A stretch of 64,000 bases of DNA from a virus. A model generated the notes under the pieces. It saw only the letters and a list, made by a program, of their open reading frames with translations. It did not search any database and was not told where the DNA came from. Where the stretch lies: IMG/VR virus record IMGVR_UViG_3300045988_132810, positions 1 through 64,000 of that record; one strand, written 5' to 3'. This document shows, piece by piece, positions 4,421-42,532 of the stretch (within the stretch, counting starts at the first letter, position 1; each line of letters opens with the position of its first letter). Made by a program: the position numbers and the translations under genes.

Positions 4421-4432
4421 GAATCCATAAGT

Positions 4433-4458
4433 CTAGGGAAGAATTAAAGCTTCCCTAG
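4433..4458 (+). terminator. stem-loop after SSB-like gene (weak terminator or attenuator)
   Basis: CTAGGGAAG / CTTCCCTAG 9-bp stem; no clear T-run follows. Confidence 0.35.
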
Positions 4459-4459
4459 A

Positions 4460-4475
4460 CAATACTAAATTATAG
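4460..4475 (+). promoter_or_regulatory. conserved intergenic motif copy, variant (CAATACTAAATTATAG)
   Basis: one mismatch to consensus; 18 nt upstream of ATG 4494. Confidence 0.5.
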
Positions 4476-4493
4476 ACAGCGAAGTGATAATAG

Positions 4494-5504
4494 ATGGAAG
4501 AATTAAAAGAAATGAATTCTTCCGTTGATGGGCTACAAGATACAACATATGCGGAAGTAAAAGATCCATATGGATTTATTTATATCACAACGAATTTGAT
4601 TGATGGCAAAAGATATTTAGGCCAAAGAAAATTCTATGGAAATTGGCAAGAATATCTTGGTAGTGGTGCAGCATTTAAACAAGCAATTGACAAATATGGA
4701 AAAGAAAATTTTGTAAGAAATGTAATTGATATTGCTTATTCTGCAGAAGAATTAAATGAAAAGGAATATAATTATAGTGTTTTCTTTAATGCTGTTGAAT
4801 CTAACAATTGGTATAATCTTGTTTATGGTGGAGGAACAACGCAAGGATGAACTCCAAGTAAAGAAACAAGAAAAAAGATATCAAAAGCTGCAAAAGAAAG
4901 ACTTTCAGATCCAAATAATCATCCAATGTATGGAAGAGTAGGATTAGTAGGCGAGAATAATCCCCAGTTTAAAGTTTCTCCAAAAGAACGCATGGATGAA
5001 GAAACATATAAACAATGGTATGAAAAACATAAATTATATTGGGCAAATCCAACAACTAAAGGCAAACATATATGGATAGAAAAACAACATCCCAGTTTAG
5101 GTAAAAAAATGTCAGATGAACAAAAATTAAATCTATCAGAAAAAGCAAAAGAAAGATTTATAAATCCAAGCAATCATCCAATGTATGGGAAACATCACAC
5201 AGAAGAAGCAAAGAAAAAGATGAGTGATTCTCGTAAAGGTAGTAATTGGTGGAAATGTAGAAGAATATATTGTATAGAATTAAATCAAATTTTTTGGGGA
5301 GCAAAAGAAGTACAAAATTTATATGGATTTGATCCAAGCTCTATTACAAAGTGCTGTAGAGGTAAACAAAATTATACGTATAAACATCCACAAACAGGCG
5401 AGGCATTGCATTGGTTGTATGCGGAAGATGCAATTGAAAAAGGATATATCACACAAGAAGAGTTAGATAGATATATAAATAGTTTAAAAGGTAAAGGAGA
5501 CTGA
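4494..5504 (+). pseudogene. GIY-YIG homing endonuclease with NUMOD3-like repeats, interrupted by one in-frame TGA (4848-4850)
   Basis: N-terminal GFIYITTN..KRYLGQ (GIY-YIG); ORFs 4494-4850 and 4926-5504 are in the same frame. Reading through the TGA gives GGGTTQG*TPSKETRKKISKAAKERLSDPNNHPMYGR, continuous with three NHPMYG(K/R) repeats. Confidence 0.75.
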
Positions 5505-6601: not shown

Positions 6602-7267
6602 ATGAGCGCCACTTTAATTAGAAAATGCGCGTTCTGTGGGGAAGATATTGTTTTGACAAAGAATGATATGCATATGGTTTCTTACAAACAGAAAAGCTAT
6701 CATACTGAATGTTTTAAAACAATGTGTAATGGGCGAGTACTAAAAAACAACAGGTACTCGTCCATTTATTCAGATGCCTTACAGAATTTAGATCAACTAG
6801 AATCAGAAGCAAAAAAGAAATTAATGCATCGTTTTGTGCAAGACGAATTCAATGAGTATTTGATTGTACATTATGATGTTGGGGCATTAAGTCGTCGTTT
6901 TTGGTCAATTATTGCAGATATTCAATCTGGAAAATATAATGGAAGACGGTGCAAGCCAATTGAATTAGAAACCTTGTTTGATATGTGGAAGGACTATCAG
7001 AAAGAACTAGACAAAACAAATGCATGGAACAAGCGTCATGGCAAGGTGATTGACGGAGAGGTAAGAGTTAACTATGATCTTGCTATTTTAATGAGTAATT
7101 ATGTAAAATATTCAAAAGCCAAGGAAAAAGCAAAGAAAGAAGCAGAAGAGAAAGAGAAACAAAGTCGCGTTAAAAAGAGTGTAAACATTGATTATAGCAA
7201 AATTAAAGCAGTTGAACAGAATGATGGATTAGGGGATATTAGCGATCTTTTGGAAGACTTAATTTGA
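6602..7267 (+). CDS. hypothetical zinc-finger protein
   Basis: 221 aa; CAFCGE...YHTECF motif; K/E-rich C-terminus. Confidence 0.5.
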   Translation: MSATLIRKCAFCGEDIVLTKNDMHMVSYKQKSYHTECFKTMCNGRVLKNNRYSSIYSDALQNLDQLESEAKKKLMHRFVQDEFNEYLIVHYDVGALSRRFWSIIADIQSGKYNGRRCKPIELETLFDMWKDYQKELDKTNAWNKRHGKVIDGEVRVNYDLAILMSNYVKYSKAKEKAKKEAEEKEKQSRVKKSVNIDYSKIKAVEQNDGLGDISDLLEDLI

Positions 7268-7281
7268 TAGGAAGTGAAAAT

Positions 7282-8811
7282 ATGGAACTTGAATTAACTA
7301 ATAGCCAGTCCGAAATGCTGGTAGTTGGATCATTTTATAAAGAGCCAACATTATATCTAACATATGGAACCTCAATTGTCCCAAAATATGATTTTTCGGA
7401 CAAGGCATGTGAGTTTTTTTATCAGTTATTTTCTGATTATTATGTTTCATATTCTGAAGATTTTACCGAATTGAAAATTAATACGTTCTGCAGCATGTCT
7501 AAAGAGCGTTTTAAACAATATAGACAGTATGGTGGATATAAGACAATTAAAGAATTAATGGCAATGAGCGACCCTCATGATATTAAGAATTATCTTTCAA
7601 TATTTAAGAAGTTTTCATTGCTAAGAGCTTTTAATGAGACTGGATATGATGTATCAAAAATTTTGGCAATTAAGAATTTCAATGCATTAACGCCAGATGA
7701 TATTTGTAGAATTGTTCGTGGCAGAATTGATAAGGTAGCTAATAAAGTACAAGCAATTGATGAACCTGTTGTTCTTACAGAAAACGCAGTTGCATGTATT
7801 GATCAATTCCTATGCATGCCATCTATGGGCGTTGCTGGGCCATGGCCATATCTTCAGAAGTATTATAGAGGATTGCTTCCCGGAAACGTTTTGATGACAG
7901 GAGCTTTGAGCAATAGCGGTAAGGGTAGAAATCTCGTTTATCTTATTGCGTATCTAGTCCTTGTTCAAAAGCAAAAAATTCTATTGCTTGCAAACGAAAT
8001 GTCGGCAGAGAGCATTAAATTGAATTTCTTAGTTACATGCATTAATTCTCCAGAGATTCAAGAGCTACATGGAATTAAAGATATTTATAAACCAGAAAGA
8101 GAAATTGCACTCGGATCATATAAAGATGATAACGGAAAGTACATTTATAGACAGATGGATGATAATGGCGTGTATACAGAAGATGAAGAGTCTTATAAAA
8201 AGAGAATTTATGAAACATCTTCTGAATATCGGAAGGTGCAACGAATTATGCAATGGGTTGAATCTGAAAGTAGTGGAAAATTCTTGTTTAAGAATATCGG
8301 CTCTTGCTATGAAGATGAAGTACTTGAAATGGAAATTAAAAAAGCCAATACAATTTATAAGTGTGATGGTGTAGCATATGATACGCTAAAATGCTCTGGC
8401 CTTGAGGATTTTGCAAAGCTCGCAGCAACAGCGACAAAAATCACAGAATGGATTCATGAAACAAAAATGTATTGCATTTGTACTTTTCAGCTAACAGATT
8501 CAGCGCATGACATTTCAATTGAAAATCTAAACTCGCAAGAGATTGCAAGTTCTAAGAGAATTATGCATGTTACTGACCAAATGCAAATGTGGAAGCATTT
8601 ATCAGCAGATGATAAGCAAAACTATGTATATGTCTGTGAAGATGATACTTGGGGAGAACCAATAGAACATGATTTAAGATATGATAAAAATTATGTTGGA
8701 TTAAGAATTGTAAAGAACAGAGTTGGTTCTAAGAATGATTTGATCTGCTTTGAAGTAGATATGGACGGAAATGTTTGGAAAGAAATTGGTGTGCTTAAGA
8801 AGAAAATGTAA
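7282..8811 (+). CDS. DnaB-like replicative DNA helicase
   Basis: ATG 7282 after GGAAG RBS; N-terminal DnaB-like region, P-loop GALSNSGKGRN, C-terminal RecA-like fold motifs. Confidence 0.55.
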   Translation: MELELTNSQSEMLVVGSFYKEPTLYLTYGTSIVPKYDFSDKACEFFYQLFSDYYVSYSEDFTELKINTFCSMSKERFKQYRQYGGYKTIKELMAMSDPHDIKNYLSIFKKFSLLRAFNETGYDVSKILAIKNFNALTPDDICRIVRGRIDKVANKVQAIDEPVVLTENAVACIDQFLCMPSMGVAGPWPYLQKYYRGLLPGNVLMTGALSNSGKGRNLVYLIAYLVLVQKQKILLLANEMSAESIKLNFLVTCINSPEIQELHGIKDIYKPEREIALGSYKDDNGKYIYRQMDDNGVYTEDEESYKKRIYETSSEYRKVQRIMQWVESESSGKFLFKNIGSCYEDEVLEMEIKKANTIYKCDGVAYDTLKCSGLEDFAKLAATATKITEWIHETKMYCICTFQLTDSAHDISIENLNSQEIASSKRIMHVTDQMQMWKHLSADDKQNYVYVCEDDTWGEPIEHDLRYDKNYVGLRIVKNRVGSKNDLICFEVDMDGNVWKEIGVLKKKM

Positions 8812-10820: not shown

Positions 10821-11558
10821 ATGAGCCAACTGATTGATATGACTAATTGGATTATGGCAGAGCATGGAGTGCCTGATAGTAAAATCACGGTACTTAAAAG
10901 AGTTGAAAACAACAAACATGGATCTACACGCTGGTTGTGTGAGTGCTCTTGTAGTGAACATAACAAATTTATTGCAATTGGTCAAGACATTAGGAATGGT
11001 AAAGTTAGATCTTGTGGATGTTTGCAAAAAGAAGCCACAAAAAAGATGGGGCAAAGCAGGCCAACAGAAAACAAACGAGATTTGTCTGGAAAGTTTGGAA
11101 TACTTTGGACAACAAACACTAATGATGAAGTGTATTTTGACCTAGAAGATTCAGAAGAAATTTTAAAACACAGTTGGTATTTGAGTGTAAAAGGTTATCC
11201 TACTTCACAGATTAATGGAAAACCAGTTAGGTTGCACCAATTTATTGGGTGTTATAACCACGACCATAAAAATAGGAATAAATTAGACAACCGAAAATCC
11301 AATTTAAGACCTTGTACTCAACAGGAAAACACAAGGAATAGAAGCAAGAACAAAAACAATAAATCTGGATTTACTGGAGTGTATTGGGATAAGCAATATT
11401 GTAAATGGGGCGCTCAAATTAAAGTCAAACAAAAGACAATTAAATTAGGAACATTTGATGATAAAATCGAAGCGCTTATCGCAAGATTAAAGGCCGAAAA
11501 AGAAATTTACAAAGAGTTTGCTCCACAAAGAGATTTGTTTGATGAATATAATATTTGA
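10821..11558 (+). CDS. free-standing HNH endonuclease with C-terminal AP2-type DNA-binding domain
   Basis: 245 aa; HQF..HDHKNRNKLDNRKSNLR..TQQEN (HNH_3-like) followed by SGFTGVYWDKQYCKWGAQIKVKQKTIKLGTF (AP2-like). Confidence 0.7.
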   Translation: MSQLIDMTNWIMAEHGVPDSKITVLKRVENNKHGSTRWLCECSCSEHNKFIAIGQDIRNGKVRSCGCLQKEATKKMGQSRPTENKRDLSGKFGILWTTNTNDEVYFDLEDSEEILKHSWYLSVKGYPTSQINGKPVRLHQFIGCYNHDHKNRNKLDNRKSNLRPCTQQENTRNRSKNKNNKSGFTGVYWDKQYCKWGAQIKVKQKTIKLGTFDDKIEALIARLKAEKEIYKEFAPQRDLFDEYNI

Positions 11559-12473: not shown

Positions 12474-12757
12474 ATTATTTTTCGTCAAAGTTTAAGTCTT
12501 AAAGTTGTAAAGAGGGCTTTTAGATAATTATTAATTAAAATTGTGTGCCCACAAAGTTTTACAAAATCCTTGAGCAATGGTTTGGTTTCAAGTTCAATGG
12601 CCATAGGTTATCCACAAGGCTGAATGGTAGCAATCCTTGTGTGAAAATAGGTTAATGTGTGAAATATATAGAATTTCGAGTACTAGCAGAGCTGGGCATC
12701 TCTGAAAACTGCCCATTGATATGGCGGAGTGATGGAAGCAGTAGACATAGCAGACTT

Positions 12758-13525
12758 TTTCAGAAAGTAATTCTTTTTAAGAGATTCATACAAAGTGCTT
12801 AAGAATTACCTAATTTAAAATGTTAGGTGGATTGTATGAAAAAATGGGAAAGATTTACTCGGCAAGAGATTGAACAATTTGTAAAAGATAGTTTTAGTTA
12901 TGCTCAATTAGCAAAAAAGTGTGGATATAAAGGCGGGAGTAGTTTACAACAAATAAAGCAAATGGTAGAACAGTTTGAGCTAGACGTATCACATTTTACT
13001 GGGCAAGGGTGGCTTGCAGGAAGAACATACGAAAGTAAAAAATATATTCAGTTTAACGAATATATAAAAAGCAAATATGTCCAGACTAATAAACTTCGAA
13101 AAAAATTATTAAAAGAAGGACTTAAAGAGCATGTATGTGAATGTTGTTTAAATTCTATGTGGAATGGAGTGCCAATACCACTTGAAGTTCATCATATAGA
13201 CGGTGATAAAAACAACAATGATTTGGAAAATCTTCAATTATTGTGTCCAAATTGTCATGCATTAACTGATACTTATCGAGGAAGAAATACGAGAAGACAC
13301 AAGGAGAAAACATCAAATTGAAATCTCTTGTAGGAGCACCAAGTCAGGAAACTACTTGCGTGAATGACCCCTAAACGGCGAACAGTTCTGAGAACGCCGT
13401 ACCAATCCAACACTTGTTGGAAGTGCGTAGAGACTATACAGGGTCAACCTAAGTCGAAAGATATGGTTAAGACATAGTCCAGCCCACAACGTAGAAATAC
13501 GGCCATGGTGACATGGAGTGGGATG
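12758..13525 (+). mobile_element. group I intron (768 nt) in the tRNA-Leu(UAA) anticodon loop, carrying an HNH ORF
   Basis: Follows exon U34 and ends in G. Core-like elements are GTGCGTAGAGACTATACA (13423-13440, R-like) and AAGACATAGTCC (13469-13480, S-like). The ORF sits in the 5' part. Confidence 0.75.
12836..13321 (+). CDS. intron-encoded HNH homing endonuclease
   Basis: ATG 12836 after AGGTGG RBS; EVHHIDGDKNNNDLENLQLLCPNCH motif. Confidence 0.85.
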   Translation: MKKWERFTRQEIEQFVKDSFSYAQLAKKCGYKGGSSLQQIKQMVEQFELDVSHFTGQGWLAGRTYESKKYIQFNEYIKSKYVQTNKLRKKLLKEGLKEHVCECCLNSMWNGVPIPLEVHHIDGDKNNNDLENLQLLCPNCHALTDTYRGRNTRRHKEKTSN

Positions 13526-13635
13526 AAAATCTGCTGGTAGTAATACCGTGCGGGAGCAAAGCCCGTCTCCGCTACCACGCGAACAAATGGAATGCGTTAA
13601 GTAATGTGTGGCTGACTGACCTAAGAGTCAAATAT

Positions 13636-13709
13636 GCAAGCGTAACTCAGTTGGATAGAGTGCCTCGCTACGAACGAGGAAGACATGGGTTCAAATCCTA
13701 TCGTTTGCA
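13636..13709 (+). tRNA. tRNA-Arg(ACG): tRNA-Arg(ACG)
   Basis: Acceptor GCAAGCG/CGTTTGC, D arm ACTC..GAGT, anticodon arm CCTCG-CTACGAA-CGAGG, T arm ATGGG-TTCAAAT-CCTAT. Confidence 0.85.
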
Positions 13710-13720
13710 TTCTTTAATAT

Positions 13721-13805
13721 GCCCGAATGATGGAATTGGTAGACATGCAGCTCTCAAAAAGCTGTGCCGCAAGGCGTGTGAGATCGTGGCTCACTTCGGG
13801 TACCA
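13721..13805 (+). tRNA. tRNA-Leu(CAA): tRNA-Leu(CAA), CCA encoded
   Basis: Acceptor GCCCGAA/TTCGGGT, anticodon arm CAGCT-CTCAAAA-AGCTG, long variable arm, T arm GTGAG-ATCGTGG-CTCAC (atypical T-loop), A-CCA. Confidence 0.8.
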
Positions 13806-13971
13806 AATGGTAGTAAGTAGTGCAAATTTTATATCAGATAACCAGTAAGGATAAAATCCGTTGCAGGATTTGCTCCCTGTATCGAGAAAGATTAAATTTG
13901 AACTCGCTGAAAGTAGCTGGTGAATGGGTATAAAATGGAGTCATGCACGGCTCCGCTTGCTATCATTACCA
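13806..13971 (+). ncRNA. structured RNA X1 (unknown family): 12-bp terminal helix, NCCA 3' end, starts directly after the tRNA-Leu CCA
   Basis: Terminal helix AATGGTAGTAAG (13806-17) pairs with CTTGCTATCATT (13956-67), then A-CCA. Inner helices are GTGCA/TGCAC (13820-24/13944-48) and ATTTTATA/TATAAAAT (13826-33/13929-36). Homologous to X2 with compensatory changes. Confidence 0.6.
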
Positions 13972-14024
13972 CAGGTCTTTGTGGCAACTGTACGACCTTA
14001 TAAACTACTAAAGTTGCAACATAT

Positions 14025-14099
14025 TGCTGGCGGGAGGTTGGCATCTCAAGCGGCCTCATAAATCGTTTTAATCTGGTTCAATTCCAGAGTCAGCAACCA
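14025..14099 (+). tRNA. tRNA-(CAU): tRNA with CAU anticodon (Met or Ile2 type), weak anticodon stem
   Basis: Acceptor TGCTGGC/GTCAGCA, T arm TCTGG-TTCAATT-CCAGA, A-CCA; loop CTCATAA. The anticodon stem GCGGC/ATCGT has two G-U pairs and one mismatch. Confidence 0.6.
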
Positions 14100-14108
14100 A
14101 ATAAATAT

Positions 14109-14191
14109 GGGCAGGTAGCGAATCGGCAAACGCGGCGGACTGTAAATCCGTTCCTTCGGGGTAGTGGGCTCGACACCCACCCTGCCCACCA
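14109..14191 (+). tRNA. tRNA-Tyr(GUA): tRNA-Tyr(GUA), copy 1
   Basis: Acceptor GGGCAGG/CCTGCCC, anticodon arm GCGGA-CTGTAAA-TCCGT, long variable arm, T arm GTGGG-CTCGACA-CCCAC (atypical loop), A-CCA. Confidence 0.8.
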
Positions 14192-14294
14192 AATGATGGT
14201 GAGTAGCGTACAATGTCAGATTTTAGTGAAGGTAGAACCAGCAACTTTTAAATCTGTTAGGGGTCATACGCGGCCTCGCTTGCTATCATTGCCA
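14192..14294 (+). ncRNA. structured RNA X2 (same family as X1), starts directly after the tRNA-Tyr CCA
   Basis: Terminal helix AATGATGGTGAG (14192-203) pairs with CTTGCTATCATT (14279-90), then G-CCA. Inner helices are GCGTA/TACGC (14206-10/14267-71) and CAGATTT/AAATCTG (14217-23/14250-56). Confidence 0.6.
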
Positions 14295-14374
14295 AGGGAT
14301 AAGTTGCTTAAACTGTTCGAACGAACCCTACAAATCGGCAGAAACGGTGACAGCTCGGAAAGACGGCAAAACAT

Positions 14375-14450
14375 GGGGCGGTCATACAGCGGTCTAGTAT
14401 GTCGGACTTATAATCCGTTCACGAGTGTTCAAATCACTCTCGTCCCACCA
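14375..14450 (+). tRNA. tRNA-Ile(UAU): tRNA-Ile(UAU), CCA encoded
   Basis: 76-nt cloverleaf: acceptor GGGGCGG/TCGTCCC, D arm ATAC..GTAT, anticodon loop CT-TAT-AA, T arm GAGTG-TTCAAAT-CACTC. Confidence 0.8.
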
Positions 14451-14459
14451 AATTACATA

Positions 14460-14475
14460 TAATACAAAATTATAG
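14460..14475 (+). promoter_or_regulatory. conserved intergenic motif copy (TAATACAAAATTATAG)
   Basis: Between tRNA-Ile and ORF 14504, inside the tRNA array. Confidence 0.6.
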
Positions 14476-14503
14476 CTTTCAACACATGGAAGGACGACAA
14501 AGA

Positions 14504-15250
14504 ATGAATGACAAAATTGACGATATTGGAATTTATACTGATATACATGAAAGTGGTAAAAGAAATAAGGATGGTAATAAAATGTATTATGCCACCTGTA
14601 AAGTGTGTGGAACAATAGTAGAAAAGAAATTGGCCAATATCAAGCGAAGTAATAAAATTTGTTGTCACAAAACACAAAAAAACAATTTAAATAAGATTAA
14701 TGACATGCCAGTTGGCTGGATCAATAAATCAGATTTAAATAAAAAAATTTATGATACGTGGAAAGGAATGTGGAATAGAACAACTGAAAAATGTTGGGGG
14801 AAATACCCTACTTACATAGGGACAACAGTTGATGATTCATGGAGATTGCTTAGTAATTTTGTAAATGATATCAAAGAATTGCCCGGATATGAAGAGTGGG
14901 CAAATTCTAAAAAAAGAATGATGATGCTAGATAAAGACACATTGGTTGATGGGAATAAACACTATAGCAAAGAAACTTGTTGTTTTATCACAGCTTTAGA
15001 ATCGAGCAAAGACGTGAATAAAAGGCATCCTGATAATACTTTGAAAGCAAATGCAGCTAGTGTTAAGAAGTGTTCTATCCCAGTAAAAATAATGAATAAG
15101 CAAACTTTCGAAGAAAAGATTTTCCCTTCACTTCGAGAAGCGTGTAGAGTAATGGGATGGAATGAAGGTAATGCTTGGAAGGTAGTAAGTGATAAGTATC
15201 CATATAACAGTTCTGTAGAAGGATGGACAATAGAACAACTAAATGAATAA
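14504..15250 (+). CDS. putative free-standing homing-endonuclease-like DNA-binding protein
   Basis: ATG 14504 after GAAGGA RBS. N-terminal zinc-finger-like CKVCGT..CCHK resembles the N-terminus of the 10821 HNH-AP2 protein. C-terminal FPSLREACRVMGWNEGNAWKVV looks like a nuclease-associated HTH module; no clear catalytic motif seen. Confidence 0.4.
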   Translation: MNDKIDDIGIYTDIHESGKRNKDGNKMYYATCKVCGTIVEKKLANIKRSNKICCHKTQKNNLNKINDMPVGWINKSDLNKKIYDTWKGMWNRTTEKCWGKYPTYIGTTVDDSWRLLSNFVNDIKELPGYEEWANSKKRMMMLDKDTLVDGNKHYSKETCCFITALESSKDVNKRHPDNTLKANAASVKKCSIPVKIMNKQTFEEKIFPSLREACRVMGWNEGNAWKVVSDKYPYNSSVEGWTIEQLNE

Positions 15251-15282
15251 ACGCAATAAAGAAAATGTTGAAACATAAATGA

Positions 15283-15361
15283 AACACTGAGGTCGGAAAG
15301 GCTCCCGACGCTCCTCTTATAGGGAATCTGAGATGCAGGATACGCCGCCCTGCCAGTGTTT
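15283..15361 (+). ncRNA. degenerate tRNA-like cloverleaf (loop CT-TAT-AG), probable tRNA pseudogene
   Basis: Acceptor-like AACACTG/CAGTGTT, arm GTCGG..CCGAC, arm GCAGG-ATACGCCGC-CCTGC; poor anticodon stem, no CCA, no T-loop consensus. Confidence 0.4.
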
Positions 15362-15371
15362 AAAATTATAT

Positions 15372-15442
15372 TATCGTATAGCTTAATGGGAAAGCGCCCT
15401 CACTATCAGAGGGAGATACTTGTTCGATTCAAGTTGCGTTAG
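15372..15442 (+). tRNA. tRNA with non-canonical anticodon loop ACTATCA (formally UAU, Ile-like)
   Basis: Acceptor TATCGTA/TGCGTTA (one U-U mismatch), D arm GCTT..AAGC, anticodon stem CCCTC/GAGGG, T arm ACTTG-TTCGATT-CAAGT; C33 and C37 are unusual. Confidence 0.55.
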
Positions 15443-15520
15443 AAAAATGTGGATGCTATGCACGTCGCGCGCCGCCACCAAACAAAGCATAGCTGGCGCT
15501 GTGGAAAGACACAGAGATCT

Positions 15521-15605
15521 GCAGGAGTCCCATAGTGGTCGATTGGAGCGGTTTTGTAAGCCGCCAGCTTTGCTCACGTCGGTTCGAATCCGACCTCCTG
15601 CTCCA
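15521..15605 (+). tRNA. tRNA-Tyr(GUA): tRNA-Tyr(GUA), copy 2, CCA encoded
   Basis: Acceptor GCAGGAG/CTCCTGC, anticodon arm GCGGT-TTGTAAG-GCCGC, variable arm AGC-TTT-GCT, T arm GTCGG-TTCGAAT-CCGAC, T-CCA. Confidence 0.75.
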
Positions 15606-15613
15606 CATTATAT

Positions 15614-15729
15614 GCAAGTAAGGAAGAATTGGTCTTCTCTCATTTAACAAAGCTGAGATACAAAAAGATCGCTACTTTGGAAACGTTCGCTTTGGGGAAA
15701 TGTGTGTTCGAATCACACTACTTGCTCCA
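15614..15729 (+). ncRNA. 116-nt tRNA-like gene with expanded anticodon/variable region
   Basis: Canonical acceptor GCAAGTA/TACTTGC plus T-CCA, D arm GAAG-AATTGGT-CTTC, T arm GTGTG-TTCGAAT-CACAC. The middle part is TCTCA-(11-nt loop TTTAACAAAGC)-TGAGA followed by a 43-nt insert. Confidence 0.5.
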
Positions 15730-15853
15730 GCGAGGTAACGTCACTTCCATCACGTAGCACAGCGGATAGCAAATAGTGAAAGAGATATGTGCACCTAGGC
15801 TCTTGTTTGAACTATTTGGTTATGATAAAGAAGGATTGGAAACCTCGCTTTAT

Positions 15854-15943
15854 GAGAGCGTAACTCAGTTGGTAGAGTTTTATAGCGTGAAGGGATATGC
15901 TATTGAATACCCTTAGTCGCCAGTTCGAGTCTGGCCGCTCTCA
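15854..15943 (+). ncRNA. 90-nt tRNA-like gene with the anticodon arm replaced by a possible pseudoknot
   Basis: Canonical acceptor GAGAGCG/CGCTCTC, D arm ACTC-AGTTGGTA-GAGT, T arm GCCAG-TTCGAGT-CTGGC. The 38-nt centre has interleaved pairings ATAGC/GCTAT and AAGGG/CCCTT. Confidence 0.5.
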
Positions 15944-15970
15944 TTAAAATATATATTAGGAGAAATAGTT

Positions 15971-16225
15971 ATGGCAATTAAAATAATTAGTCAAGGAAAA
16001 GATTTTGATAATCCTATATTTACCCAGCGATGCCCTAAATGCGATTGCGTATTTACCTATCAGAATGAAGATGTTCATAGAGAGCCTACTGGTAGATATT
16101 ATAGAGATTTTGAAGAGTATTTTATTAAAATGGACGATTGCGACAGACAAGAAATTGCAGTATCTATTGAATGTCCTTGGTGCCATAAAAAGATTCATGT
16201 AAAAGATGAATATAAAAAAATATGA
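15971..16225 (+). CDS. small zinc-ribbon protein inside the tRNA array
   Basis: 84 aa after AGGAG RBS; CPKCDC...CPWCH. Confidence 0.55.
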   Translation: MAIKIISQGKDFDNPIFTQRCPKCDCVFTYQNEDVHREPTGRYYRDFEEYFIKMDDCDRQEIAVSIECPWCHKKIHVKDEYKKI

Positions 16226-16349
16226 AAGATGTAATTGCTCAATTTTAATGGAGTATTGCATGCAATAGAATTTATGGATGAATGTTATCGTCCGACAAGT
16301 TAATTGGTTCTTGTCGAAGTCAAAAACCATTATTTTATATAACTAGTAT

Positions 16350-16424
16350 GGGCCTGTAATTCAATAGTAGAATATACGCCTTTTAAGCGTACTACGGACG
16401 GAGCGTAACCGCCCAGACCCACCA
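16350..16424 (+). tRNA. tRNA-Lys(UUU): tRNA-Lys(UUU), CCA encoded
   Basis: Acceptor GGGCCTG/CAGACCC (one C-A mismatch), D arm ATTC..GAAT, anticodon arm TACGC-CTTTTAA-GCGTA, T arm GG(A)CGG-AGCGTAA-CCGCC (atypical). Confidence 0.7.
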
Positions 16425-16520
16425 TTTATTCTCTGTAATTTAGTCCACTTGACTCCGGTACAATCTTCTGCTCTGTTCCCTGTTTATGCAGGTTAGATGA
16501 ATAAAGACAGAGCTATTTAT

Positions 16521-16596
16521 GGCTGGCGGGAGGTTGGCATCTCAACTTGGCTCATAACCAAGCTCAATTCAGTTCGATTCTGAAGCTCAGCAACCA
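16521..16596 (+). tRNA. tRNA-(CAU): second CAU-anticodon tRNA, paralogue of 14025..14099, imperfect acceptor
   Basis: 5' half is identical to the first copy (GCTGGCGGGAGGTTGGCATCTCAA). Good anticodon arm CTTGG-CTCATAA-CCAAG and T arm TTCAG-TTCGATT-CTGAA. The acceptor has a 1-72 mismatch and a bulged C. Confidence 0.55.
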
Positions 16597-16599
16597 AAT

Positions 16600-16673
16600 A
16601 GCGGATTAGTGTAATAGTAGCACGACAGACTTTGGATCTGTAGGTAGGGGAGCATAGCCTCTATCCGCTGCCA
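16600..16673 (+). tRNA. tRNA-Gln(UUG): tRNA-Gln(UUG), CCA encoded
   Basis: Acceptor AGCGGAT/ATCCGCT, anticodon arm ACAGA-CTTTGGA-TCTGT, T arm AGGGG-AGCATAG-CCTCT (atypical loop), G-CCA. Confidence 0.75.
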
Positions 16674-16704
16674 TGTAAATATTAATTTTTAGGAGGAATA
16701 TATT

Positions 16705-16830
16705 ATGAACACAAGAACTGCACTACATTATGAGAATCGTATTGCGAAGCTAAAGGCCAAGAGTGAAGTTGTAAATGCAAACCTGATTAATAAAGCACAG
16801 AGGGAGCTTAACAAGCTGACACAAAAGTAA
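16705..16830 (+). CDS. 41-aa hypothetical protein between tRNA genes
   Basis: ATG 16705 8 nt after AGGAGG; MNTRTALHYENRIAKLKAKSEVVNANLINKAQRELNKLTQK; below the ORF-track length cutoff. Confidence 0.45.
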   Translation: MNTRTALHYENRIAKLKAKSEVVNANLINKAQRELNKLTQK

Positions 16831-16836
16831 GAATAT

Positions 16837-16911
16837 GCGGTAGTAGCTCAATGGTAGAGCATCAGATTTCCAATCTGATTGTTGCGAGATCGTGCCTCGT
16901 CTACCGCTCCA
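16837..16911 (+). tRNA. tRNA-Gly(UCC): tRNA-Gly(UCC), CCA encoded
   Basis: Acceptor GCGGTAG/CTACCGC, D arm GCTC..GAGC, anticodon arm TCAGA-TTTCCAA-TCTGA, T arm GCGAG-ATCGTGC-CTCGT (atypical loop). Confidence 0.8.
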
Positions 16912-16942: not shown

Positions 16943-16977
16943 GGGGGCCTAGAGCTTTCTAGGCTCCCATTTTTTTG
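16943..16977 (+). terminator. rho-independent terminator closing the tRNA array
   Basis: GGGGGCCTAGA..TCTAGGCTCCC hairpin followed by TTTTTTT. Confidence 0.8.
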
Positions 16978-16991
16978 TGCAATTTGCACAA

Positions 16992-17020
16992 TTGACAAAA
17001 CGAAAATATATGATATGATA
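16992..17020 (+). promoter_or_regulatory. sigma-70-type promoter
   Basis: TTGACA-16/17 nt-TATGAT/ATGATA. Confidence 0.5.
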
Positions 17021-18909: not shown

Positions 18910-20013
18910 ATGATTTACCTAGATAACGCTGCTACATCTCCAATTTGTGAAGCCGCAAAGAATATTATCCTTGACAATCTTGACGAATATTACAATCCAA
19001 ACAGTTCATATGAGGATGCTCGTGGAGTAAAGATTAAGGTCGAGGAAGCACGTGAAAAGATTGCGGCACTAATTGGAGCACAACCTGACGAGATTTACTT
19101 TACTTCTGGTGGATCTGAAGCAAATTCATGGGTTTCAAATCATGATTTTACACTAGCATCTAACATTGAGCATCATTCTATTGATCCAGACTATAAATTC
19201 AAGGTCGATTATAGAGGAATGGTTGATATAGAGAAATTTGAAAAAAGAGTAAATGAATTGCAGAATAATTATTTCGGTATTAGTCCGGGTATTGCTTCAT
19301 GTATGATGGTAAATAATGAACTTGGAGTTATTGAGCCAATTGAAGAACTAGCAAAGATTGCTCATGATAATCATATGTTGTTCCATACAGATGCAGTTCA
19401 GGCATTCCCTCATATGAAAATTAATGTAGAAGAGCTTGGCGTAGATATGTTGTCATGCTCTGCTCATAAGTTTGGTGGGATTAAAGGATGCGGATTCCTT
19501 TATATCAAAGATGGAATTCATATTCATCCTTTAATTAATGGTGGAAGCCAAGAAAGAGGAATCAGAGGTGGCACAACTAATGTCCTTGGTGTCTTGGCTA
19601 TGGCTGCTGCGCTAGAAGATACGACAACCCATATGAATGGAAATAATGCAAAAATTGCACGTTTATCCAAGAAGATTAAGGATAATTTATTGAATGTAAA
19701 AGGTGTCACAATTAATGGGGCAACAGATAAAAAGCAGTATTTAGACAGTATTTTGAACTTTAGAATTGATGGTGTACATGGTTCAGATGTTGTTGCGATG
19801 GCTGACGAATTTGGGATTGCTATTAGTGCTGGTTCAGCTTGCAATGAAGGTGATGCCATTCCATCTCATGTGCTAAAAGCAATTGGTTTGTCTGACGAAG
19901 AGGCACTAAGTAGCATTCGTGTATCTCTTGGAAGATATAATACAGAAGAAGAAATTGATTATGCTTGTGTGATTCTTCCAAAGGTCATTGAAAGATTGAG
20001 ATCACTTAATTGA
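18910..20013 (+). CDS. cysteine desulfurase (class V aminotransferase, NifS/IscS-like)
   Basis: IYLDNAATSP N-terminus; PLP-lysine context SAHKFGGIKGCGFLYIK; 367 aa. Confidence 0.85.
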   Translation: MIYLDNAATSPICEAAKNIILDNLDEYYNPNSSYEDARGVKIKVEEAREKIAALIGAQPDEIYFTSGGSEANSWVSNHDFTLASNIEHHSIDPDYKFKVDYRGMVDIEKFEKRVNELQNNYFGISPGIASCMMVNNELGVIEPIEELAKIAHDNHMLFHTDAVQAFPHMKINVEELGVDMLSCSAHKFGGIKGCGFLYIKDGIHIHPLINGGSQERGIRGGTTNVLGVLAMAAALEDTTTHMNGNNAKIARLSKKIKDNLLNVKGVTINGATDKKQYLDSILNFRIDGVHGSDVVAMADEFGIAISAGSACNEGDAIPSHVLKAIGLSDEEALSSIRVSLGRYNTEEEIDYACVILPKVIERLRSLN

Positions 20014-20043: not shown

Positions 20044-21207
20044 ATGATTATCAATAATAAAAGAGCGCTTGCATACATCCAGCATGTAACCAACATTCGT
20101 CCTATTGATGGTGCAGATAATATTGAACAGTGTAATGTACTTGGATGGAATCTCATTTGTAAGAAGGGTGAATTCCATGAAGGCGATCCTTGTGTTTATA
20201 TTGAGATTGACTCAAAAGTCCCTGAGAGAGAGGAATTTGAATTCCTTCGTGCAAAAGGTTTTAAGGTCAAGACAATGAAGCTTGGTAAGTTTAATTGTAT
20301 CAGTCAGGGCCTTGCCATGCCACAGTCTGCATTTAAAGAGTTGGCAGGGCTTTCAGAGGGGACGGATGTAACCGACATTCTTGGAATTAAGTATTCCGTA
20401 CAAGAGGACAATGCTCGTAAGAGCAATGGCGATCCTAATGCAAAATATAAATCTATGGCCGCTCGTCACCAGAAAATCTTTAAAAAGAAGTGGGCACGTT
20501 GGATGATGCGTCGTTCTTGGGGGCGTAAGGTTATGTTTTTCTTCTTCGGCAAGAAGAAGGATAACCCTCGTGGTTTTCCTTCATTTGTTTCAAAGACAGA
20601 TGAAGAGCGTGTAGAAAATCAGCCTTGGCGTATTAGTGATGGCAAGACTTATATTGCTACAGAAAAGCTAGATGGCACTTCTTGTACTTATGCACTTGAA
20701 CGAAAAGGGCGTAATAAGTTTGAATTTTATGTTTGTTCTCGTAATGTAAGACAGCAGGACGAGAAGCAAGAGTGTTACCATGACCATAACATCTATTGGG
20801 ATTTGGCGTTCAAGTACAATATCGAACAGCATTTGAAGGATATCCTGAATCAATTTCCTAAGCTTAAATGGGTATGCATTCAAGGCGAGGGCGTAGGCTC
20901 TGTTCAGGGCAATCCACTGAAGCTCAAGGAAGATGATTTATATGTTTTTAACTTTAAAGATTCTGAAAGGGGAAGATATAATTCTATTATTGGTAGAGCT
21001 ATTATTGAAAAGATGGGCATGAAATGGGTTCCCATTCTTGGAAAAGTTCAAATGCCAAACACTATGGAGGAACTTAAGGCGCTTGCAACTGGCAAGTCCA
21101 AGGTGAATCCAGATGTAATGCGTGAAGGTATTGTGTACCGTTCTTTGGATGGTAGTGATAGTTTCAAAAATGTCAGCCGCGAGTATTTGCTAAAACATAA
21201 TAATTAA
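20044..21207 (+). CDS. RNA ligase, DRB0094 (Rnl5)-like: N-terminal OB-like domain plus nucleotidyltransferase domain
   Basis: Adenylylation motif I ATEKLDGTS; N-terminal IDGADNIE..VLGW..GEF..GD..VYIEID pattern typical of this family. Confidence 0.75.
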   Translation: MIINNKRALAYIQHVTNIRPIDGADNIEQCNVLGWNLICKKGEFHEGDPCVYIEIDSKVPEREEFEFLRAKGFKVKTMKLGKFNCISQGLAMPQSAFKELAGLSEGTDVTDILGIKYSVQEDNARKSNGDPNAKYKSMAARHQKIFKKKWARWMMRRSWGRKVMFFFFGKKKDNPRGFPSFVSKTDEERVENQPWRISDGKTYIATEKLDGTSCTYALERKGRNKFEFYVCSRNVRQQDEKQECYHDHNIYWDLAFKYNIEQHLKDILNQFPKLKWVCIQGEGVGSVQGNPLKLKEDDLYVFNFKDSERGRYNSIIGRAIIEKMGMKWVPILGKVQMPNTMEELKALATGKSKVNPDVMREGIVYRSLDGSDSFKNVSREYLLKHNN

Positions 21208-21468: not shown

Positions 21469-22284
21469 ATGAACTATCATTCAGATAATTGGATAATGGA
21501 CGGTGTTCGAGAGCATTATAACGAAGCTCTCGAATACTTTCCAGAAGATAGAATTGTGGGAATCTTCTATCAAGGTAGTGGTAATTATGGACTTGATTAT
21601 GAAGAGTCAGATGTTGATACTAAACTTATTGTAGCGCCGACATTTAAGGATATTGCAATGAACAAAAATCCCGTTAGTACAACTCATATTCGAACCAATG
21701 ATGAGCATACAGATTGGAAGGATATTAGACTTTATATCCAGACATTTAGGAAGCAAAATTTAAACTTCTTAGAAATCTTGTTCACTCCTTATAAAATCAT
21801 CAATCCCATGTATGAAAATCAATGGAATAGACTTATTAATGCCAGAGAAGATATTGCACATTATTCTCCAGTTCAAGCAATTAAGTCTATGCGAGGTATT
21901 GCTAAAGAAAAGTATTTTGCAATGGAGCATCATTATCCATCTCGTATGAAATTGATTAATAAGTTTGGATATGATCCGAAACAACTACATCATCTATTGC
22001 GAGTAGAGGAGTATATTGCAAGATATATCAATCATGTGCCATATGAAAAATGTTTGATTTCTGAAAGTCCAGAATATTTAGTAGAGGTCAAGAAAGGCTT
22101 ATATAATCTAGAAGACGCACGAGCACACGCTAATGACGCGATCGACCATATTGATTTACTATGTAATGATTTCTTAAAAAATGAATACACAGTGGATGCA
22201 AAAATTGATGAGCTGTTAAATAGCGTACAGTACGAGATTATGAAGATTGCAATTAAGAAAGAGATCGGTGATGAAAATGAATAG
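21469..22284 (+). CDS. Pol-beta superfamily nucleotidyltransferase (RNA-ligase-associated type)
   Basis: GSGNYGLDYEESDVDTK (G-S...D-x-D NTase motif); position next to the RNA ligase and kinase-HD genes. Confidence 0.65.
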   Translation: MNYHSDNWIMDGVREHYNEALEYFPEDRIVGIFYQGSGNYGLDYEESDVDTKLIVAPTFKDIAMNKNPVSTTHIRTNDEHTDWKDIRLYIQTFRKQNLNFLEILFTPYKIINPMYENQWNRLINAREDIAHYSPVQAIKSMRGIAKEKYFAMEHHYPSRMKLINKFGYDPKQLHHLLRVEEYIARYINHVPYEKCLISESPEYLVEVKKGLYNLEDARAHANDAIDHIDLLCNDFLKNEYTVDAKIDELLNSVQYEIMKIAIKKEIGDENE

Positions 22285-23158
22285 ACCAACTTTGATATTA
22301 CTTGTCGGGCCACCCGGCGCAGGAAAGACTACATATGCTGAAAAATATATCTCACAGCATGATAATACAGTTTATTTAAGCTCAGATGAAATCCGCAAAG
22401 AAATGTGGGGAAATGAAGCTATTCAGGGCGATAACAGTGAAATATTTAGTAGAATGCAGGCTAGGGCAGTTGATGGTTTGAATTTCGGCTATGATGTCAT
22501 TTATGACGCAACAAATATGACACGCAAGGATAGAGCAGGAATCATTTCAGTTTGTCCAAAGGTTGCTAAGATCGAATGTCATATTATCTGGGCCACAATT
22601 GAAACTTGTATTGAAAGAGATACTGCAAGAAAGCGTACAGTTGGTAAAGAAGTTATTGACAGAATGCTAAAGCGTTTTCACGCTCCTTATTATGATGAGG
22701 GGATTGACGAGATTAAGGTGATTGTGCCAAACAATTTTAATCATCAAAAATACATAGACGATTCTATGAATGCAATGAAGATCTCACATGACAATCCACA
22801 TCATACTTTAGACATTTACAATCATTGTGAGTCGGCATATAAGTATACTGTAAGTAACGATATGTGTGATAATACTATTGCACTTGCAGCATCCTTTCAC
22901 GATATTGGTAAACCATATGTCAAAACATTCATTGATGCAAAAGGTGAACCGAGTGATACTGCACACTACTATGGTCATCAATGCGTTGGAGCATGGATGG
23001 TATATGGTCTTGTTGTAGATAACATTAGAGTAGATATTGCTTGGCTTGTAAGCACTCATATGGCACCATTTCTTAATGAAAAGTATTATAGGAATTTGCC
23101 ATCATATTTAAAAACGTCTGTAGCTTTGCTTCATGAGGCAGACGTAGCGGCGCATTGA
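22271..23158 (+). CDS. P-loop polynucleotide-kinase-like domain fused to HD phosphohydrolase domain
   Basis: ATG 22271 overlaps the upstream gene by 14 nt; LVGPPGAGKTT Walker A; C-terminal FHDIGKP...HEAD HD signature. Confidence 0.7.
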   Translation: MKMNRPTLILLVGPPGAGKTTYAEKYISQHDNTVYLSSDEIRKEMWGNEAIQGDNSEIFSRMQARAVDGLNFGYDVIYDATNMTRKDRAGIISVCPKVAKIECHIIWATIETCIERDTARKRTVGKEVIDRMLKRFHAPYYDEGIDEIKVIVPNNFNHQKYIDDSMNAMKISHDNPHHTLDIYNHCESAYKYTVSNDMCDNTIALAASFHDIGKPYVKTFIDAKGEPSDTAHYYGHQCVGAWMVYGLVVDNIRVDIAWLVSTHMAPFLNEKYYRNLPSYLKTSVALLHEADVAAH

Positions 23159-30637: not shown

Positions 30638-31477
30638 ATGGACAAGACTACACTTGGTGATAGAATGAAAAACAACTACGAGAATATTAGCAGATATTAT
30701 CTAACTCGTAGAATGCCAATAATTACCCGCATTGACGGAAAGAGCTTCCACACTTTTACAAGAGGTTTTAAAAAGCCTTTTGATGACATTCTTGTAAAGA
30801 CTATGCAAGAGACTATGAAGTATCTTTGTGAAAATATTCAAGGCTGTGTTCTTGGTTATACACAAAGTGACGAAATTTCTCTTGTATTAGTAGATTATGC
30901 AGAGCTTACCACAGATGCTTGGTTTGGGAACAATCTACAGAAGATGTGTAGCGTTTCTGCAAGCATGGCTACTCTCGCGTTTAATAAAGCTTTTACTCGT
31001 AATATTTCAAAACAATCTAAACGACTTTATACAGAACACCTTGAGGAAAAAGATGCTTCTTATATTGAAACTCTTGAAATTGCAATGAATAAAGGTGCAA
31101 TGTTTGATTCTCGTGTCTTTACAATTCCAAAAGAAGAGGTTTGCAATTATATGCTATGGCGGCAACAAGACGCTACTCGCAATTCAATCCTGTCTGTAGG
31201 TCAGGCCAACTTTAGTCATAAGGATCTTCATGGTAAGTCTTGCAACAACATTCAGGATATGCTTATGACCAAGAAGGGCATTAATTGGAACGATTATGCT
31301 ACAACTTTAAAGCGTGGTAGTTGCTGCATTAAGGTTGATGATGGTCTTGCCCAGTACGATGAAGCAGGAAATATTTGTGGTTATACACAGAGAAGCCAGT
31401 GGATAATTGATAATGAAATTCCTATCTTCTCACAGGACAGAAATTATATTGAAAGACTTATTAATGTAGGAGGTTAA
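30638..31477 (+). CDS. Thg1-like protein (tRNA-His guanylyltransferase family, 3'-5' nucleotide addition)
   Basis: RIDGKSFHTFTRGFKKPFDD and GYTQSDEISLVL match Thg1/TLP catalytic-region patterns. Confidence 0.75.
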   Translation: MDKTTLGDRMKNNYENISRYYLTRRMPIITRIDGKSFHTFTRGFKKPFDDILVKTMQETMKYLCENIQGCVLGYTQSDEISLVLVDYAELTTDAWFGNNLQKMCSVSASMATLAFNKAFTRNISKQSKRLYTEHLEEKDASYIETLEIAMNKGAMFDSRVFTIPKEEVCNYMLWRQQDATRNSILSVGQANFSHKDLHGKSCNNIQDMLMTKKGINWNDYATTLKRGSCCIKVDDGLAQYDEAGNICGYTQRSQWIIDNEIPIFSQDRNYIERLINVGG

Positions 31478-42322: not shown

Positions 42323-42532
42323 TAACACAATGGCCCCTTATATTGGCGACAATATATTGAACACCGAATATGCTGGAACACCCTTAGAGCTTCACATACC
42401 AAGGCGTAATAGTTGTGGAGATTGGGCAATCAGCAGGGAGTAATGACCCTCAACGACCACCAAGGTGCTTCTCTCAGAGAAGATGGTATGGTCTAATCCC
42501 TTTTAAATACTGCGAAAGCAGGGGTATAAATG
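42323..42532 (+). mobile_element. ORF-less group I intron (210 nt) in dnaE
   Basis: Exon 1 ends in T and the intron ends in G. Joining restores FNRG-HAVAYSLLSY..YYPVEFM, colinear with the FNKSHxxAY..HYPxEFM block of DnaE. Core-like AATCAGCAGG (42428-37) and TCAACGAC (42450-57). Confidence 0.75.

Follow-up and report, generated by a model that had tools for sequence, protein, structure and literature searches.

Compensated rewiring of the elbow in tRNAs of a phage tRNA island, and its possible role in evading T-loop-reading nucleases

A transfer RNA (tRNA) island lies on the plus strand at 12723-16911 of a 64,000-nucleotide (nt) stretch of viral DNA, namely positions 1-64,000 of the IMG/VR virus record IMGVR_UViG_3300045988_132810, hereafter the window. 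It contains 11 tRNA genes and three tRNA-like genes, together with a skipping-rope RNA, an intron bearing an HNH endonuclease gene, and homing-endonuclease genes. Six of the tRNAs have T-loops of atypical sequence. We are highly confident that these six are intact decoders whose elbow has been rewired with compensation, such that the L-shape should persist while the T-Psi-C/GG signature is gone, and that they are members of a class that is widespread among phages. In our best reading, to which we give an even chance, they work as decoders of the A-ending codons of the phage, and this compensated rewiring has removed U54 and U55, the two nucleotides required by the T-loop-cutting nuclease Cash.

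The tRNA genes of the island and its 3' end are arranged as follows.

12723..12757, plus strand: exon 1 of tRNA-Leu(UAA), with the 5' acceptor strand, the D-arm loop GAAGCAGUAGA (A18 G19), the anticodon stem and C32 U33 U34.
13526..13577, plus strand: exon 2 of tRNA-Leu(UAA), with T-loop AGCAAAG at 13555-13561 and a CCA end.
13636..13709, plus strand: tRNA-Arg(ACG), canonical T-loop UUCAAAU, no encoded CCA; ARAGORN; Rfam 63.7 bits.
13721..13805, plus strand: tRNA-Leu(CAA), T-loop AUCGUGG (A54:U58), D-loop GG, CCA; ARAGORN; Rfam tRNA model silent.
14025..14099, plus strand: tRNA(CAU)-1, canonical T-loop, unusual G8 G9, 6-nt D-loop, CCA; ARAGORN; no Rfam match.
14109..14191, plus strand: tRNA-Tyr(GUA), T-loop CUCGACA (C54:A58), CCA; ARAGORN; Rfam 52 bits.
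14375..14450, plus strand: tRNA-Ile(UAU), canonical T-loop, CCA; ARAGORN and Rfam.
15521..15605, plus strand: UGU tRNA with a long variable arm, U73, CCA; ARAGORN Thr-UGU; Rfam 50.3 bits.
16350..16424, plus strand: tRNA-Lys(UUU), T-loop AGCGUAA (A54 G55 U58), D-loop AAUAGUA (A18), CCA; Rfam 43.5 bits; cloverleaf scan.
16521..16596, plus strand: tRNA(CAU)-2, canonical T-loop, 3' acceptor strand with a bulged C; ARAGORN; gene kept in 20 loci.
16600..16673, plus strand: tRNA-Gln(UUG), T-loop AGCAUAG (A54 G55 U58), D-loop AAUAGUA (A18), CCA; ARAGORN; Rfam 51.8 bits.
16837..16911, plus strand: tRNA-Gly(UCC), T-loop AUCGUGC (A54:U58), CCA; Rfam 65.1 bits.
16943..16978, plus strand: strong intrinsic terminator at the island end, an 11-bp stem followed by a T-run.

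ARAGORN made 11 calls on the plus strand within 13635-16911, most of which were confirmed by Rfam; Lys-UUU (16350-16421) was contributed by Rfam, as the default ARAGORN run misses this gene. CCA is encoded by the six atypical genes and by five others, and is lacking from Arg and two of the tRNA-like genes. A near-consensus promoter sits 3' of the terminator (16992-17019), and the island appears to be a single plus-strand unit that ends at the 16943 terminator. A preliminary description of this DNA had already noted the six atypical T-loops, which we confirm letter for letter, as well as the G55 of three of them, the encoded CCA of most genes and the canonical loops of their neighbours: Arg, Ile, both CAU genes and the gene at 15521-15605 all have UUCRAnU. 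Its array of about 12 cloverleaf genes is real, but the count becomes 11 tRNAs plus three tRNA-like genes, with Leu-UAA split by an intron. The proposed second Tyr-GUA gene, at 15521-15605, has a UGU anticodon instead, because its 7-nt loop reads UUUGUAA, and Tyr is thus represented by a single gene. Likewise, the copies that had been taken for UAU-like or degenerate tRNAs turned out to be conserved tRNA-like genes (15371-15443, 15614-15729 and 15853-15944). G8 G9 is common to both CAU tRNAs, as is a D-loop of 6 nt (UUGGCA) without A14; the second of them also has a 1:72 mismatch besides its bulged C. They may be Met, initiator-like or Ile2 species.

The cloverleaf scan was performed with our own scanner, which is anchored on CCA and blind to loop sequence. 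All six atypical genes conform to a cloverleaf with a 7-bp acceptor stem, a D-arm, a 5-bp anticodon stem with a 7-nt loop containing U33 and a purine at 37, and a 5-bp T-stem with a 7-nt loop. The spliced Leu-UAA is accepted as well, and its exon 2 stems covary with the intron-less orthologues at loci L019 (11110-11196) and L037 of related phages, whose unusual T-loop is identical to its own. The scanner gave no match in 438 kb of shuffled DNA, and in 16 unrelated small phages it found UUC loops only. Re-registered T-arms that would expose a UUC were considered and rejected, as the T-arm and acceptor regions of all six genes are devoid of UUC, whatever stem boundary is chosen.

None of the six atypical tRNAs carries the conserved elbow set of G18 G19, U54 U55 C56 and A58. 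All six lack U54, three lack both U55 and G18, and four lack A58; in these four the canonical U54:A58 is inverted to A54:U58. Overall, U54:A58 is replaced by A54:U58, C:A or A:A, and G18:U55 by A18:G55. The replacement at 18:55 is strictly coupled in the window: the G55 tRNAs (Leu-UAA, Lys and Gln) have a D-loop AG in 3/3 cases, and the U55 tRNAs and tRNA-like genes have GG in 11/11. Since the substitutes are matched, the fold should be kept while the T-Psi-C/GG signature is erased.

Relatives of the phage provide an independent view of these pairs. Among 50,697 GenBank phage records no close relative was found, the matches being limited to HNH fragments and canonical tRNA-Gly genes. Searching IMG/VR with the protein whose gene immediately precedes the island yielded 21 loci at 96-98% identity and one further at 81%, on contigs mostly of 130-160 kb. 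A second set comprised 13 loci, of which twelve are 48-82% identical and one is a contig of the first set. In the resulting clade set of 87 tRNA clusters from 36 related phage loci, 80 clusters have U55 with G18, five have G55 with A18, and none is discordant. In 13 clusters A54 is paired with U58, and every U58 is accompanied by A54; four clusters pair G54 with G58. The relatives also have an Arg-ACG allele with T-loop UUGGAAU and D-loop AGCGCAUA, in which C19:G56 takes the place of G19:C56; an HNH open reading frame (ORF) adjoins this allele. When divergent members of the G55 Leu families were aligned, 11 of 23 pairs had changed in a compensatory manner, distributed over all four stems, and the same holds for 13 of 24 pairs in the five-member Tyr family. 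Given that A18 accompanies G55, that A54:U58 is swapped as a pair and that four stems covary, the atypical genes are not products of decay.

Among the relatives, differing alleles of one isoacceptor may occupy the same slot. The Leu-UAA slot contains T-loops AUCGUGG, UUCAAAU, UUCGAAU and AGCAAAG, and a canonical or a rewired allele can be found in one slot of phages whose flanking protein is 96-98% identical. Six relatives have a rewired allele (AUCGUGG) in the Ile(UAU) slot, the Gln genes of relatives differ almost solely in the T-loop, and the Gly homologues of cultured phages have UUCGAGU as against AUCGUGC in the window. A search for the rewired Gly allele outside the clade returned only 21 contigs, and nearly all of these derive from the same phages, which are roughly 90-160 kb in size. 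Of the 7-9 CCA-ending tRNAs of window-like phages, 5-6 are without UUC, compared to none in four distant relatives. Within rewired lineages, the T-loop is more variable than the remainder of the tRNA (9/63 versus 26/683 sites, p = 0.0015).

To look beyond the clade, IMG/VR was searched with a bait consisting of the 7-nt D-loop AAUAGUA and an RGCNNAR T-loop, and only those tRNAs of the matched loci that do not themselves match the bait were counted. Among the matches listed, the unrelated viral contigs gave 96 tRNAs with G55/AG, one with G55/GG, three with U55/AG and 293 with U55/GG (Fisher p = 4e-87); the 54:58 pairs were U:A in 335 cases, A:U in 85, G:G in 44, C:A in 11 and A:A in 10; 24 of the 25 tRNAs with a nucleotide other than C at 56 carry its Watson-Crick partner at 19; the G55 tRNAs comprise at least 36 anticodons; and at least six loci have G55 in every tRNA, up to 14/14. 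Many of these rewired tRNAs are also called by Rfam (32-64 bits) and ARAGORN, and the combination of D-loop AAUAGUA with T-loop AGCGUAA recurs on many anticodons. A quasi-random phage sample was drawn with a canonical T-arm bait placed one base off the true CCA position, and therefore without selecting the tRNAs that were counted. Of its 284 unique CCA-ending tRNAs, 39 (14%) lack UUC, affecting 13 of the 36 tRNA-bearing loci; 22 have G55, 17 of them from one locus.

One example comes from a cultured phage: the T4-like Acinetobacter phage Ac42 (HM032710, locus L143, about 80.6 kb) has an annotated tRNA-Met in which the D-loop reads AAUAGUA and the T-loop AGCGUAA, and this tRNA is located close to gene 57B, an RNA ligase by RefSeq annotation. 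In another array, at locus L186, all 14 of the 14 scanned tRNAs have G55; a GOLLD RNA (7054-7423, 150.6 bits) sits within this array and an RNA ligase gene (4271-4906) lies nearby. Phage tRNA islands, homing endonucleases situated between tRNAs, repair genes for tRNA and the skipping-rope RNA are already known. Apparently new is the compensated rewiring, comprising A18:G55, A54:U58 or G54:G58, and Watson-Crick swaps at 19:56; no description of phage tRNAs with A18:G55 or A54:U58 was found in full-text searches of the openly accessible literature.

Several genes downstream of the island might act on its products.

18910..20013, plus strand: cysteine desulfurase (class-V aminotransferase); Pfam E 1.2e-63.
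20044..21207, plus strand: RNA ligase of the Rnl5 type; Pfam RNA_ligase and PHA02142 OB domain; PHROG 968; Naegleria RNA ligase 5cot, E 5e-43.
21469..22284, plus strand: Pol-beta-type nucleotidyltransferase, RlaP-like; weak Pfam RlaP; PHROG 388 'nucleotidyltransferase', E 1.3e-19.
22247..23158, plus strand: P-loop polynucleotide-kinase-like domain; Pfam AAA_33; HD below the cut-off; PHROG 505 'polynucleotide kinase'; Pnkp1 4xrp, E 8.7e-10.
30638..31477, plus strand: Thg1-like protein (3'-5' nucleotidyl transferase family); Pfam Thg1, E 8e-31; Bacillus thuringiensis 4kgk, E 1e-68.

The genes of tRNA-repair type lie 2-14 kb downstream of the island. Ligases, kinases and Thg1-type enzymes of these families are known to restore broken RNA by healing and sealing it and to rebuild the 5' ends of tRNAs. 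The ligase and kinase domains are clear, and the HD phosphoesterase scores under the Pfam cut-off. The cysteine desulfurase is found a few kb 3' of the array in near as well as distant relatives (L001-L040; 37-100% identity), and its position downstream of the island suggests a link to tRNA thiolation.

The window has about 35% G+C, and the tRNA set fits its codon usage, in which TTA, AAA, CAA, GGA, ACA and TAT are preferred; AGA is the commonest Arg codon and is served by no island tRNA. Relatives of its DNA polymerase III alpha (58-59% identity) come from a Roseburia isolate scaffold and from metagenome-assembled genomes of Lachnospiraceae and Clostridia. Together with an anaerobic ribonucleotide reductase in the window, this points to a gut clostridial host, and the island probably belongs to a phage of about 150 kb that infects gut Clostridia of the Lachnospiraceae. 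Elsewhere in the window, two tyrosine-recombinase/integrase genes and an MrpR-like recombinase were detected (593-2556 and 51929-53071), and at about 53 kb, with the first tail genes, coding passes to the other strand.

Why a phage would rewire the elbow is suggested by a recently described nuclease. CbCash, a CRISPR-associated Schlafen, cuts tRNA 5' of U55 in UUC, and single mutations of U54 or U55 abolish its cleavage (PMC13462974). The six atypical T-loops start with AU, CU or AG, and thus lack the U54-U55 dinucleotide that Cash requires (PMC13462974). We propose that the rewired elbow would make the phage tRNAs unreadable to host factors that recognize the canonical T-loop, the leading candidates being defence nucleases of the Schlafen/Cash kind, which cut the T-loop and depend on U54 and U55. 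Damaged tRNAs might then be mended by the RNA ligase, the kinase and the Thg1-like enzyme encoded downstream, the cysteine desulfurase may aid thiolation of U34 in Lys and Gln, and the homing endonucleases probably swap alleles between near-identical phages. That all these parts act together, an elbow hidden from T-loop-reading host factors combined with RNA repair, U34 thiolation and homing-driven allele swapping, appears to us plausible at somewhat under an even chance. More tentatively still, a large phage class of orthogonal elbows, defined by A18:G55, any Watson-Crick pair at 19:56, and A54:U58 or G54:G58, may exist to evade T-loop-reading defences, with the window as a member in the midst of an arms race in which canonical and rewired alleles replace each other in the same slots.

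Several observations weigh against evasion of a T-loop nuclease. No such nuclease was recognized among the window ORFs in Pfam and PHROG scans, and none has been identified for the host, which is itself assigned solely from DNA polymerase genes of 58-59% identity; Cash was characterized as a Chloroflexi protein expressed in Escherichia coli (PMC13462974). The window phage has an incomplete tRNA set, of which only about half is rewired, and translation would still be halted by a nuclease acting on every host tRNA. The coexistence of canonical and rewired alleles implies that neither is strongly favoured everywhere. Near rewired arrays elsewhere, each repair gene was found in 0-4 of the 112 listed loci, a count that has no baseline and gives no visible enrichment. 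Encoded CCA, taken as a proxy for host enzymes that no longer read the elbow, behaved inconsistently between sets: the dependence was 36/0 versus 52/7 in the clade (p = 0.04) and p = 0.02 in the baited set, with no effect in the quasi-random set, and clear rewired tRNAs without encoded CCA exist, so a dependence on CCA is not supported as a rule. Finally, the same covariation could arise if constraint were relaxed and compensated drift were propagated through duplication and recombination.

This last possibility, codon supplementation combined with compensated neutral drift that rewires the elbow without benefit, is in our view rather unlikely, yet it is the alternative we take most seriously. 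The elbow constraints would be relaxed because phage tRNAs act for a short time only and bypass part of the cellular quality control, and paired changes would spread via duplication, anticodon switching and recombination. It agrees with a set that reads UUA, AAA, CAA, GGA, ACA, UAU and AUA, codons favoured at 35% G+C, with the interchange of canonical and rewired alleles in the same slot, with the diversity of solutions at 54:58 and 19:56, and with the presence of AAUAGUA/AGCGUAA on many anticodons, as duplication predicts. It accounts less readily for changes that cluster at normally invariant positions, for their recurrence in unrelated phages, for arrays in which 100% of the tRNAs are affected, and for a T-loop that outpaces the rest of the tRNA within lineages; to our knowledge, moreover, cellular tRNAs are hardly ever found in the rewired states despite having the same compensations open to them. 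The preliminary description had favoured a replacement or evasion kit over codon supplementation. The intact tRNAs, the altered positions read by T-loop nucleases and the repair-type genes speak for that part, but codon supplementation still fits. Its specific proposal of an anticodon-nuclease kit, in which the tRNAs would replace or resist those cleaved by PrrC-, RloC-, PtuAB- or VapC-type enzymes, fares worse and seems improbable to us. The set does include Lys, Tyr, Gln and Leu species, and the ligase and kinase genes have a domain-level likeness to the T4 answer to PrrC; however, the anticodon loops are standard (Lys CUUUUAA, Tyr CUGUAAA), there is a single Tyr gene, and the novelty sits in the elbow. 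We hold a self-marking system to be equally improbable, in which a nuclease or modifier of the phage or a partner would attack canonical host T-loops while the tRNAs of the phage are shielded by their rewired elbows. A loss of host tRNAs induced by phages has been reported, and entirely rewired arrays would fit a replacement of the host tRNAs; yet no such nuclease was seen among the window ORFs, which cover only part of each genome, and the set spans about 10 anticodons, so the window phage still relies on host tRNAs.

Two further explanations concern what the atypical genes are rather than what selects them. That they are amino-acid donors outside translation is, in our judgement, very improbable. 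The precedent is a non-proteinogenic tRNA-Gly of Staphylococcus aureus that serves the cell wall and lacks G18, G19, U55 and C56 (PMC4574755). By contrast, C56:G19 is kept in the window and every change is compensated, many specificities are involved as the anticodons of the G55 tRNAs attest, and no Fem-type transferase was seen in Pfam and PHROG scans of the window ORFs. That they are pseudogenes or chance cloverleaves is extremely improbable. The default ARAGORN run misses Lys-UUU and the Leu-UAA of L019, and the Rfam model does not call Leu-CAA; on the other side stand compensatory changes in four stems, strong tertiary covariation, CCA in 6/6 genes, Rfam scores of up to 65 bits and the empty shuffled controls. 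The pseudogene or chance reading was rejected on the stem and tertiary covariation and on these controls.

The island is further interrupted and flanked by putative mobile elements.

12758..13525, plus strand: intervening sequence of Leu-UAA, 768 nt, between U34 and A35, with a terminal G.
12837..13321, plus strand: HNH endonuclease ORF within the intron; Pfam HNH and HNH_3; AGGTGG ahead of the ATG.
10821..11558, plus strand: HNH/AP2-type homing-endonuclease-like ORF upstream of the island; weak Pfam HNH_3 and AP2.
14486..15250, plus strand: free-standing HNH-endonuclease-like ORF; PHROG 2081 and 953 'HNH endonuclease', E 6.5e-23; no Pfam match.

With the exon junction placed against the intron-less orthologues L019 and L037, the intervening sequence is probably a group I intron: it is inserted between U34 and A35, has U at the 5' splice site and ends with G. 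A candidate P1, identified by eye, pairs CUU|UU with AAGAG (12779-12783) and would put a U.G at the splice site. The 5.8-kb Rfam scan gave no match to a group I intron, and a weak partial alignment to Intron_gpI RF00028 at 13310-13504 (10.5 bits, E 2.5, compared to a gathering score of 50) covers a P7-like GACUA/UAGUC. The intron is present in one of 22 related genomes and missing from all 21 close relatives, in which Leu-UAA is intact; an endonuclease ORF together with such presence/absence polymorphism is characteristic of a mobile intron. Homing endonucleases probably also drive the allele mosaic between near-identical phages. Farther downstream (region 39040-43552), a LAGLIDADG ORF directly precedes DNA polymerase III alpha, whose gene is divided between the ORFs 39995-42325 and 42530-43552, and NrdD is likewise split (44593-45903 and 46042-47166), which suggests more introns or inteins; no Rfam intron match was obtained for either split gene.

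The remaining elements of the island comprise tRNA-like genes, other structured RNAs and small ORFs.

13806..14024, plus strand: structured spacer S1, a 13-bp closing helix and a hairpin common with S2; no Rfam family.
14192..14374, plus strand: structured spacer S2, conserved in relatives.
15282..15361, plus strand: skipping-rope RNA; Rfam RF02924, model positions 1-80, 77.9 bits versus a gathering score of 36.7.
15371..15443, plus strand: tRNA-like gene, loop ACUAUCA (C33, C37), without CCA, one acceptor mismatch; ARAGORN 'Ile-UAU'; Rfam 44.1 bits.
15614..15729, plus strand: tRNA-like gene of 116 nt with acceptor, D-arm, T-arm, CCA and an oversized central region; conserved in 17 loci.
15853..15944, plus strand: tRNA-like gene with a 35-nt module instead of an anticodon arm; ARAGORN 'Phe', 92 nt; Rfam 43.2 bits.
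15971..16225, plus strand: Cys-rich ORF of 84 residues; PHROG 2834 (unknown function); 21/21 relatives.
16705..16830, plus strand: ORF of 41 residues between Gln and Gly, conserved in 18 loci.

The tRNA-like gene at 15371-15443 is present in 21/21 relatives, and a change in its anticodon stem at locus L008 is compensatory. It is a short, CCA-less relative of a tRNA family of about 95 nt that combines the anticodon UAU with a long variable arm, a feature normally confined to Leu, Ser and Tyr tRNAs. Members occur at L019 (12627-12722), L036 and L037 (about 12970), L040 (6507) and L042 (6223); the sequences read from L019, L036/L037, L040 and L042/L043 have the arm loop CCAGAUUAG, and several members have C33. 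UAU tRNAs of 91-93 nt at L130 (184-276) and L186 (10904-10995) were called by ARAGORN only. The UGU tRNA at 15521-15605, which also has a long variable arm, is identical in 20 relatives and takes the slot of an ordinary Thr-UGU in L031.

The 35-nt module CGUGAAGGGAUAUGC.AUUGAAUACCCUU is found at 15853-15944 and also at L025 (3003-3095), L003 (12476-12570) and L044-L069. Within it, two potential 5-bp helices overlap (ATAGC/GCTAT and AAGGG/CCCTT), possibly as a pseudoknot or a switch. Covariation is seen in the first of them (ATCGC/GCGAT and TTATC/GATAA). MT836871 and 16 IMG/VR contigs (20-45 kb) carry the module too, on a CCA-ending tRNA body of another kind. The sequence of the skipping-rope RNA, an orphan motif, has a BLAST match in 7/21 relatives. 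Spacers S1 and S2 are copies of an element of about 160 nt that begins directly after the CCA of Leu-CAA and Tyr; the 13-bp closing helix reads AAUGRURGURAGU/GCUUGCUAUCAUU and the hairpin covaries. No Rfam family was matched by spacers S1 to S6, and the folding z-scores of these spacers and of the tRNA-like genes are mostly unremarkable despite their conservation.

Few nucleotides in biology are as conserved as the T-Psi-C loop and the D-loop GG, and the hundreds of rewired phage tRNAs amount to a natural mutagenesis of the elbow. They raise the prospect that phage tRNAs may need to differ from those of the host, beyond adding copies. They also predict an escape from T-loop cleavage for phage tRNAs, whose fate was left open in the 2026 Cash study (PMC13462974). 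As the default ARAGORN run misses Lys-UUU and the intron-less Leu-UAA of L019, counts of phage tRNAs and the codon-usage arguments based on them may be biased. Moreover, elbow-rewired tRNAs could serve as orthogonal scaffolds, with the tRNA-Met of Ac42 as a cultured entry point.

Comparison with known systems places the island among several precedents. T5-type arrays that counter defences likewise combine clustered tRNAs with homing endonucleases, and they differ from canonical tRNAs at nuclease-readable positions: T5 tRNA-Lys reportedly counters the AriB of PARIS and T5 tRNA-Tyr the retron-associated PtuAB, with escape variants in the anticodon loop. However, the known differences concern the anticodon stem-loop of one species, whereas those of the window concern elbow positions 18, 19, 54, 55, 56 and 58 in many species and are compensated. 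The Leu-UAA intron shares its host gene, the insertion point between U34 and A35 and the 3'-terminal G with the group I intron of cyanobacterial and plastid tRNA-Leu(UAA); by contrast, it is phage-borne, carries an HNH ORF, is found in one of 22 related genomes and matches Rfam weakly. As in T4 Pnkp with Rnl1, bacterial Pnkp/Hen1 and Rnl5 ligases, and the bacterial Thg1-like proteins, the window is predicted to encode a ligase, a kinase-like domain and a Thg1-like protein. Compared to the T4 pair, the ligase is of the Naegleria/Deinococcus Rnl5 type, the phosphoesterase is a weak HD match and the genes are not adjacent throughout.

The skipping-rope RNA matches the full length of RF02924. The published motif usually has a terminator downstream of it and is associated with a protein gene nearby (Weinberg et al. 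2017, PMC5737381), whereas the window copy sits between the HNH-like ORF and a tRNA-like gene, 9 nt 5' of the latter. The staphylococcal tRNA-Gly is the nearest precedent for the elbow itself, as a cellular tRNA without G18, G19, U55 and C56. It has U18/U19 or C18/U19, is limited to Gly and is dedicated to peptidoglycan (PMC4574755), whereas the phage tRNAs keep or flip 19:56, use A18:G55 and serve many amino acids; uncompensated loss and a single amino acid, hallmarks of the staphylococcal type, do not apply to them, and no partner transferase was seen among the window ORFs. Cash, finally, is a host nuclease encoded outside the locus and was studied as a Chloroflexi protein in E. coli, and the positions that it needs are those replaced in the six atypical tRNAs (PMC13462974).

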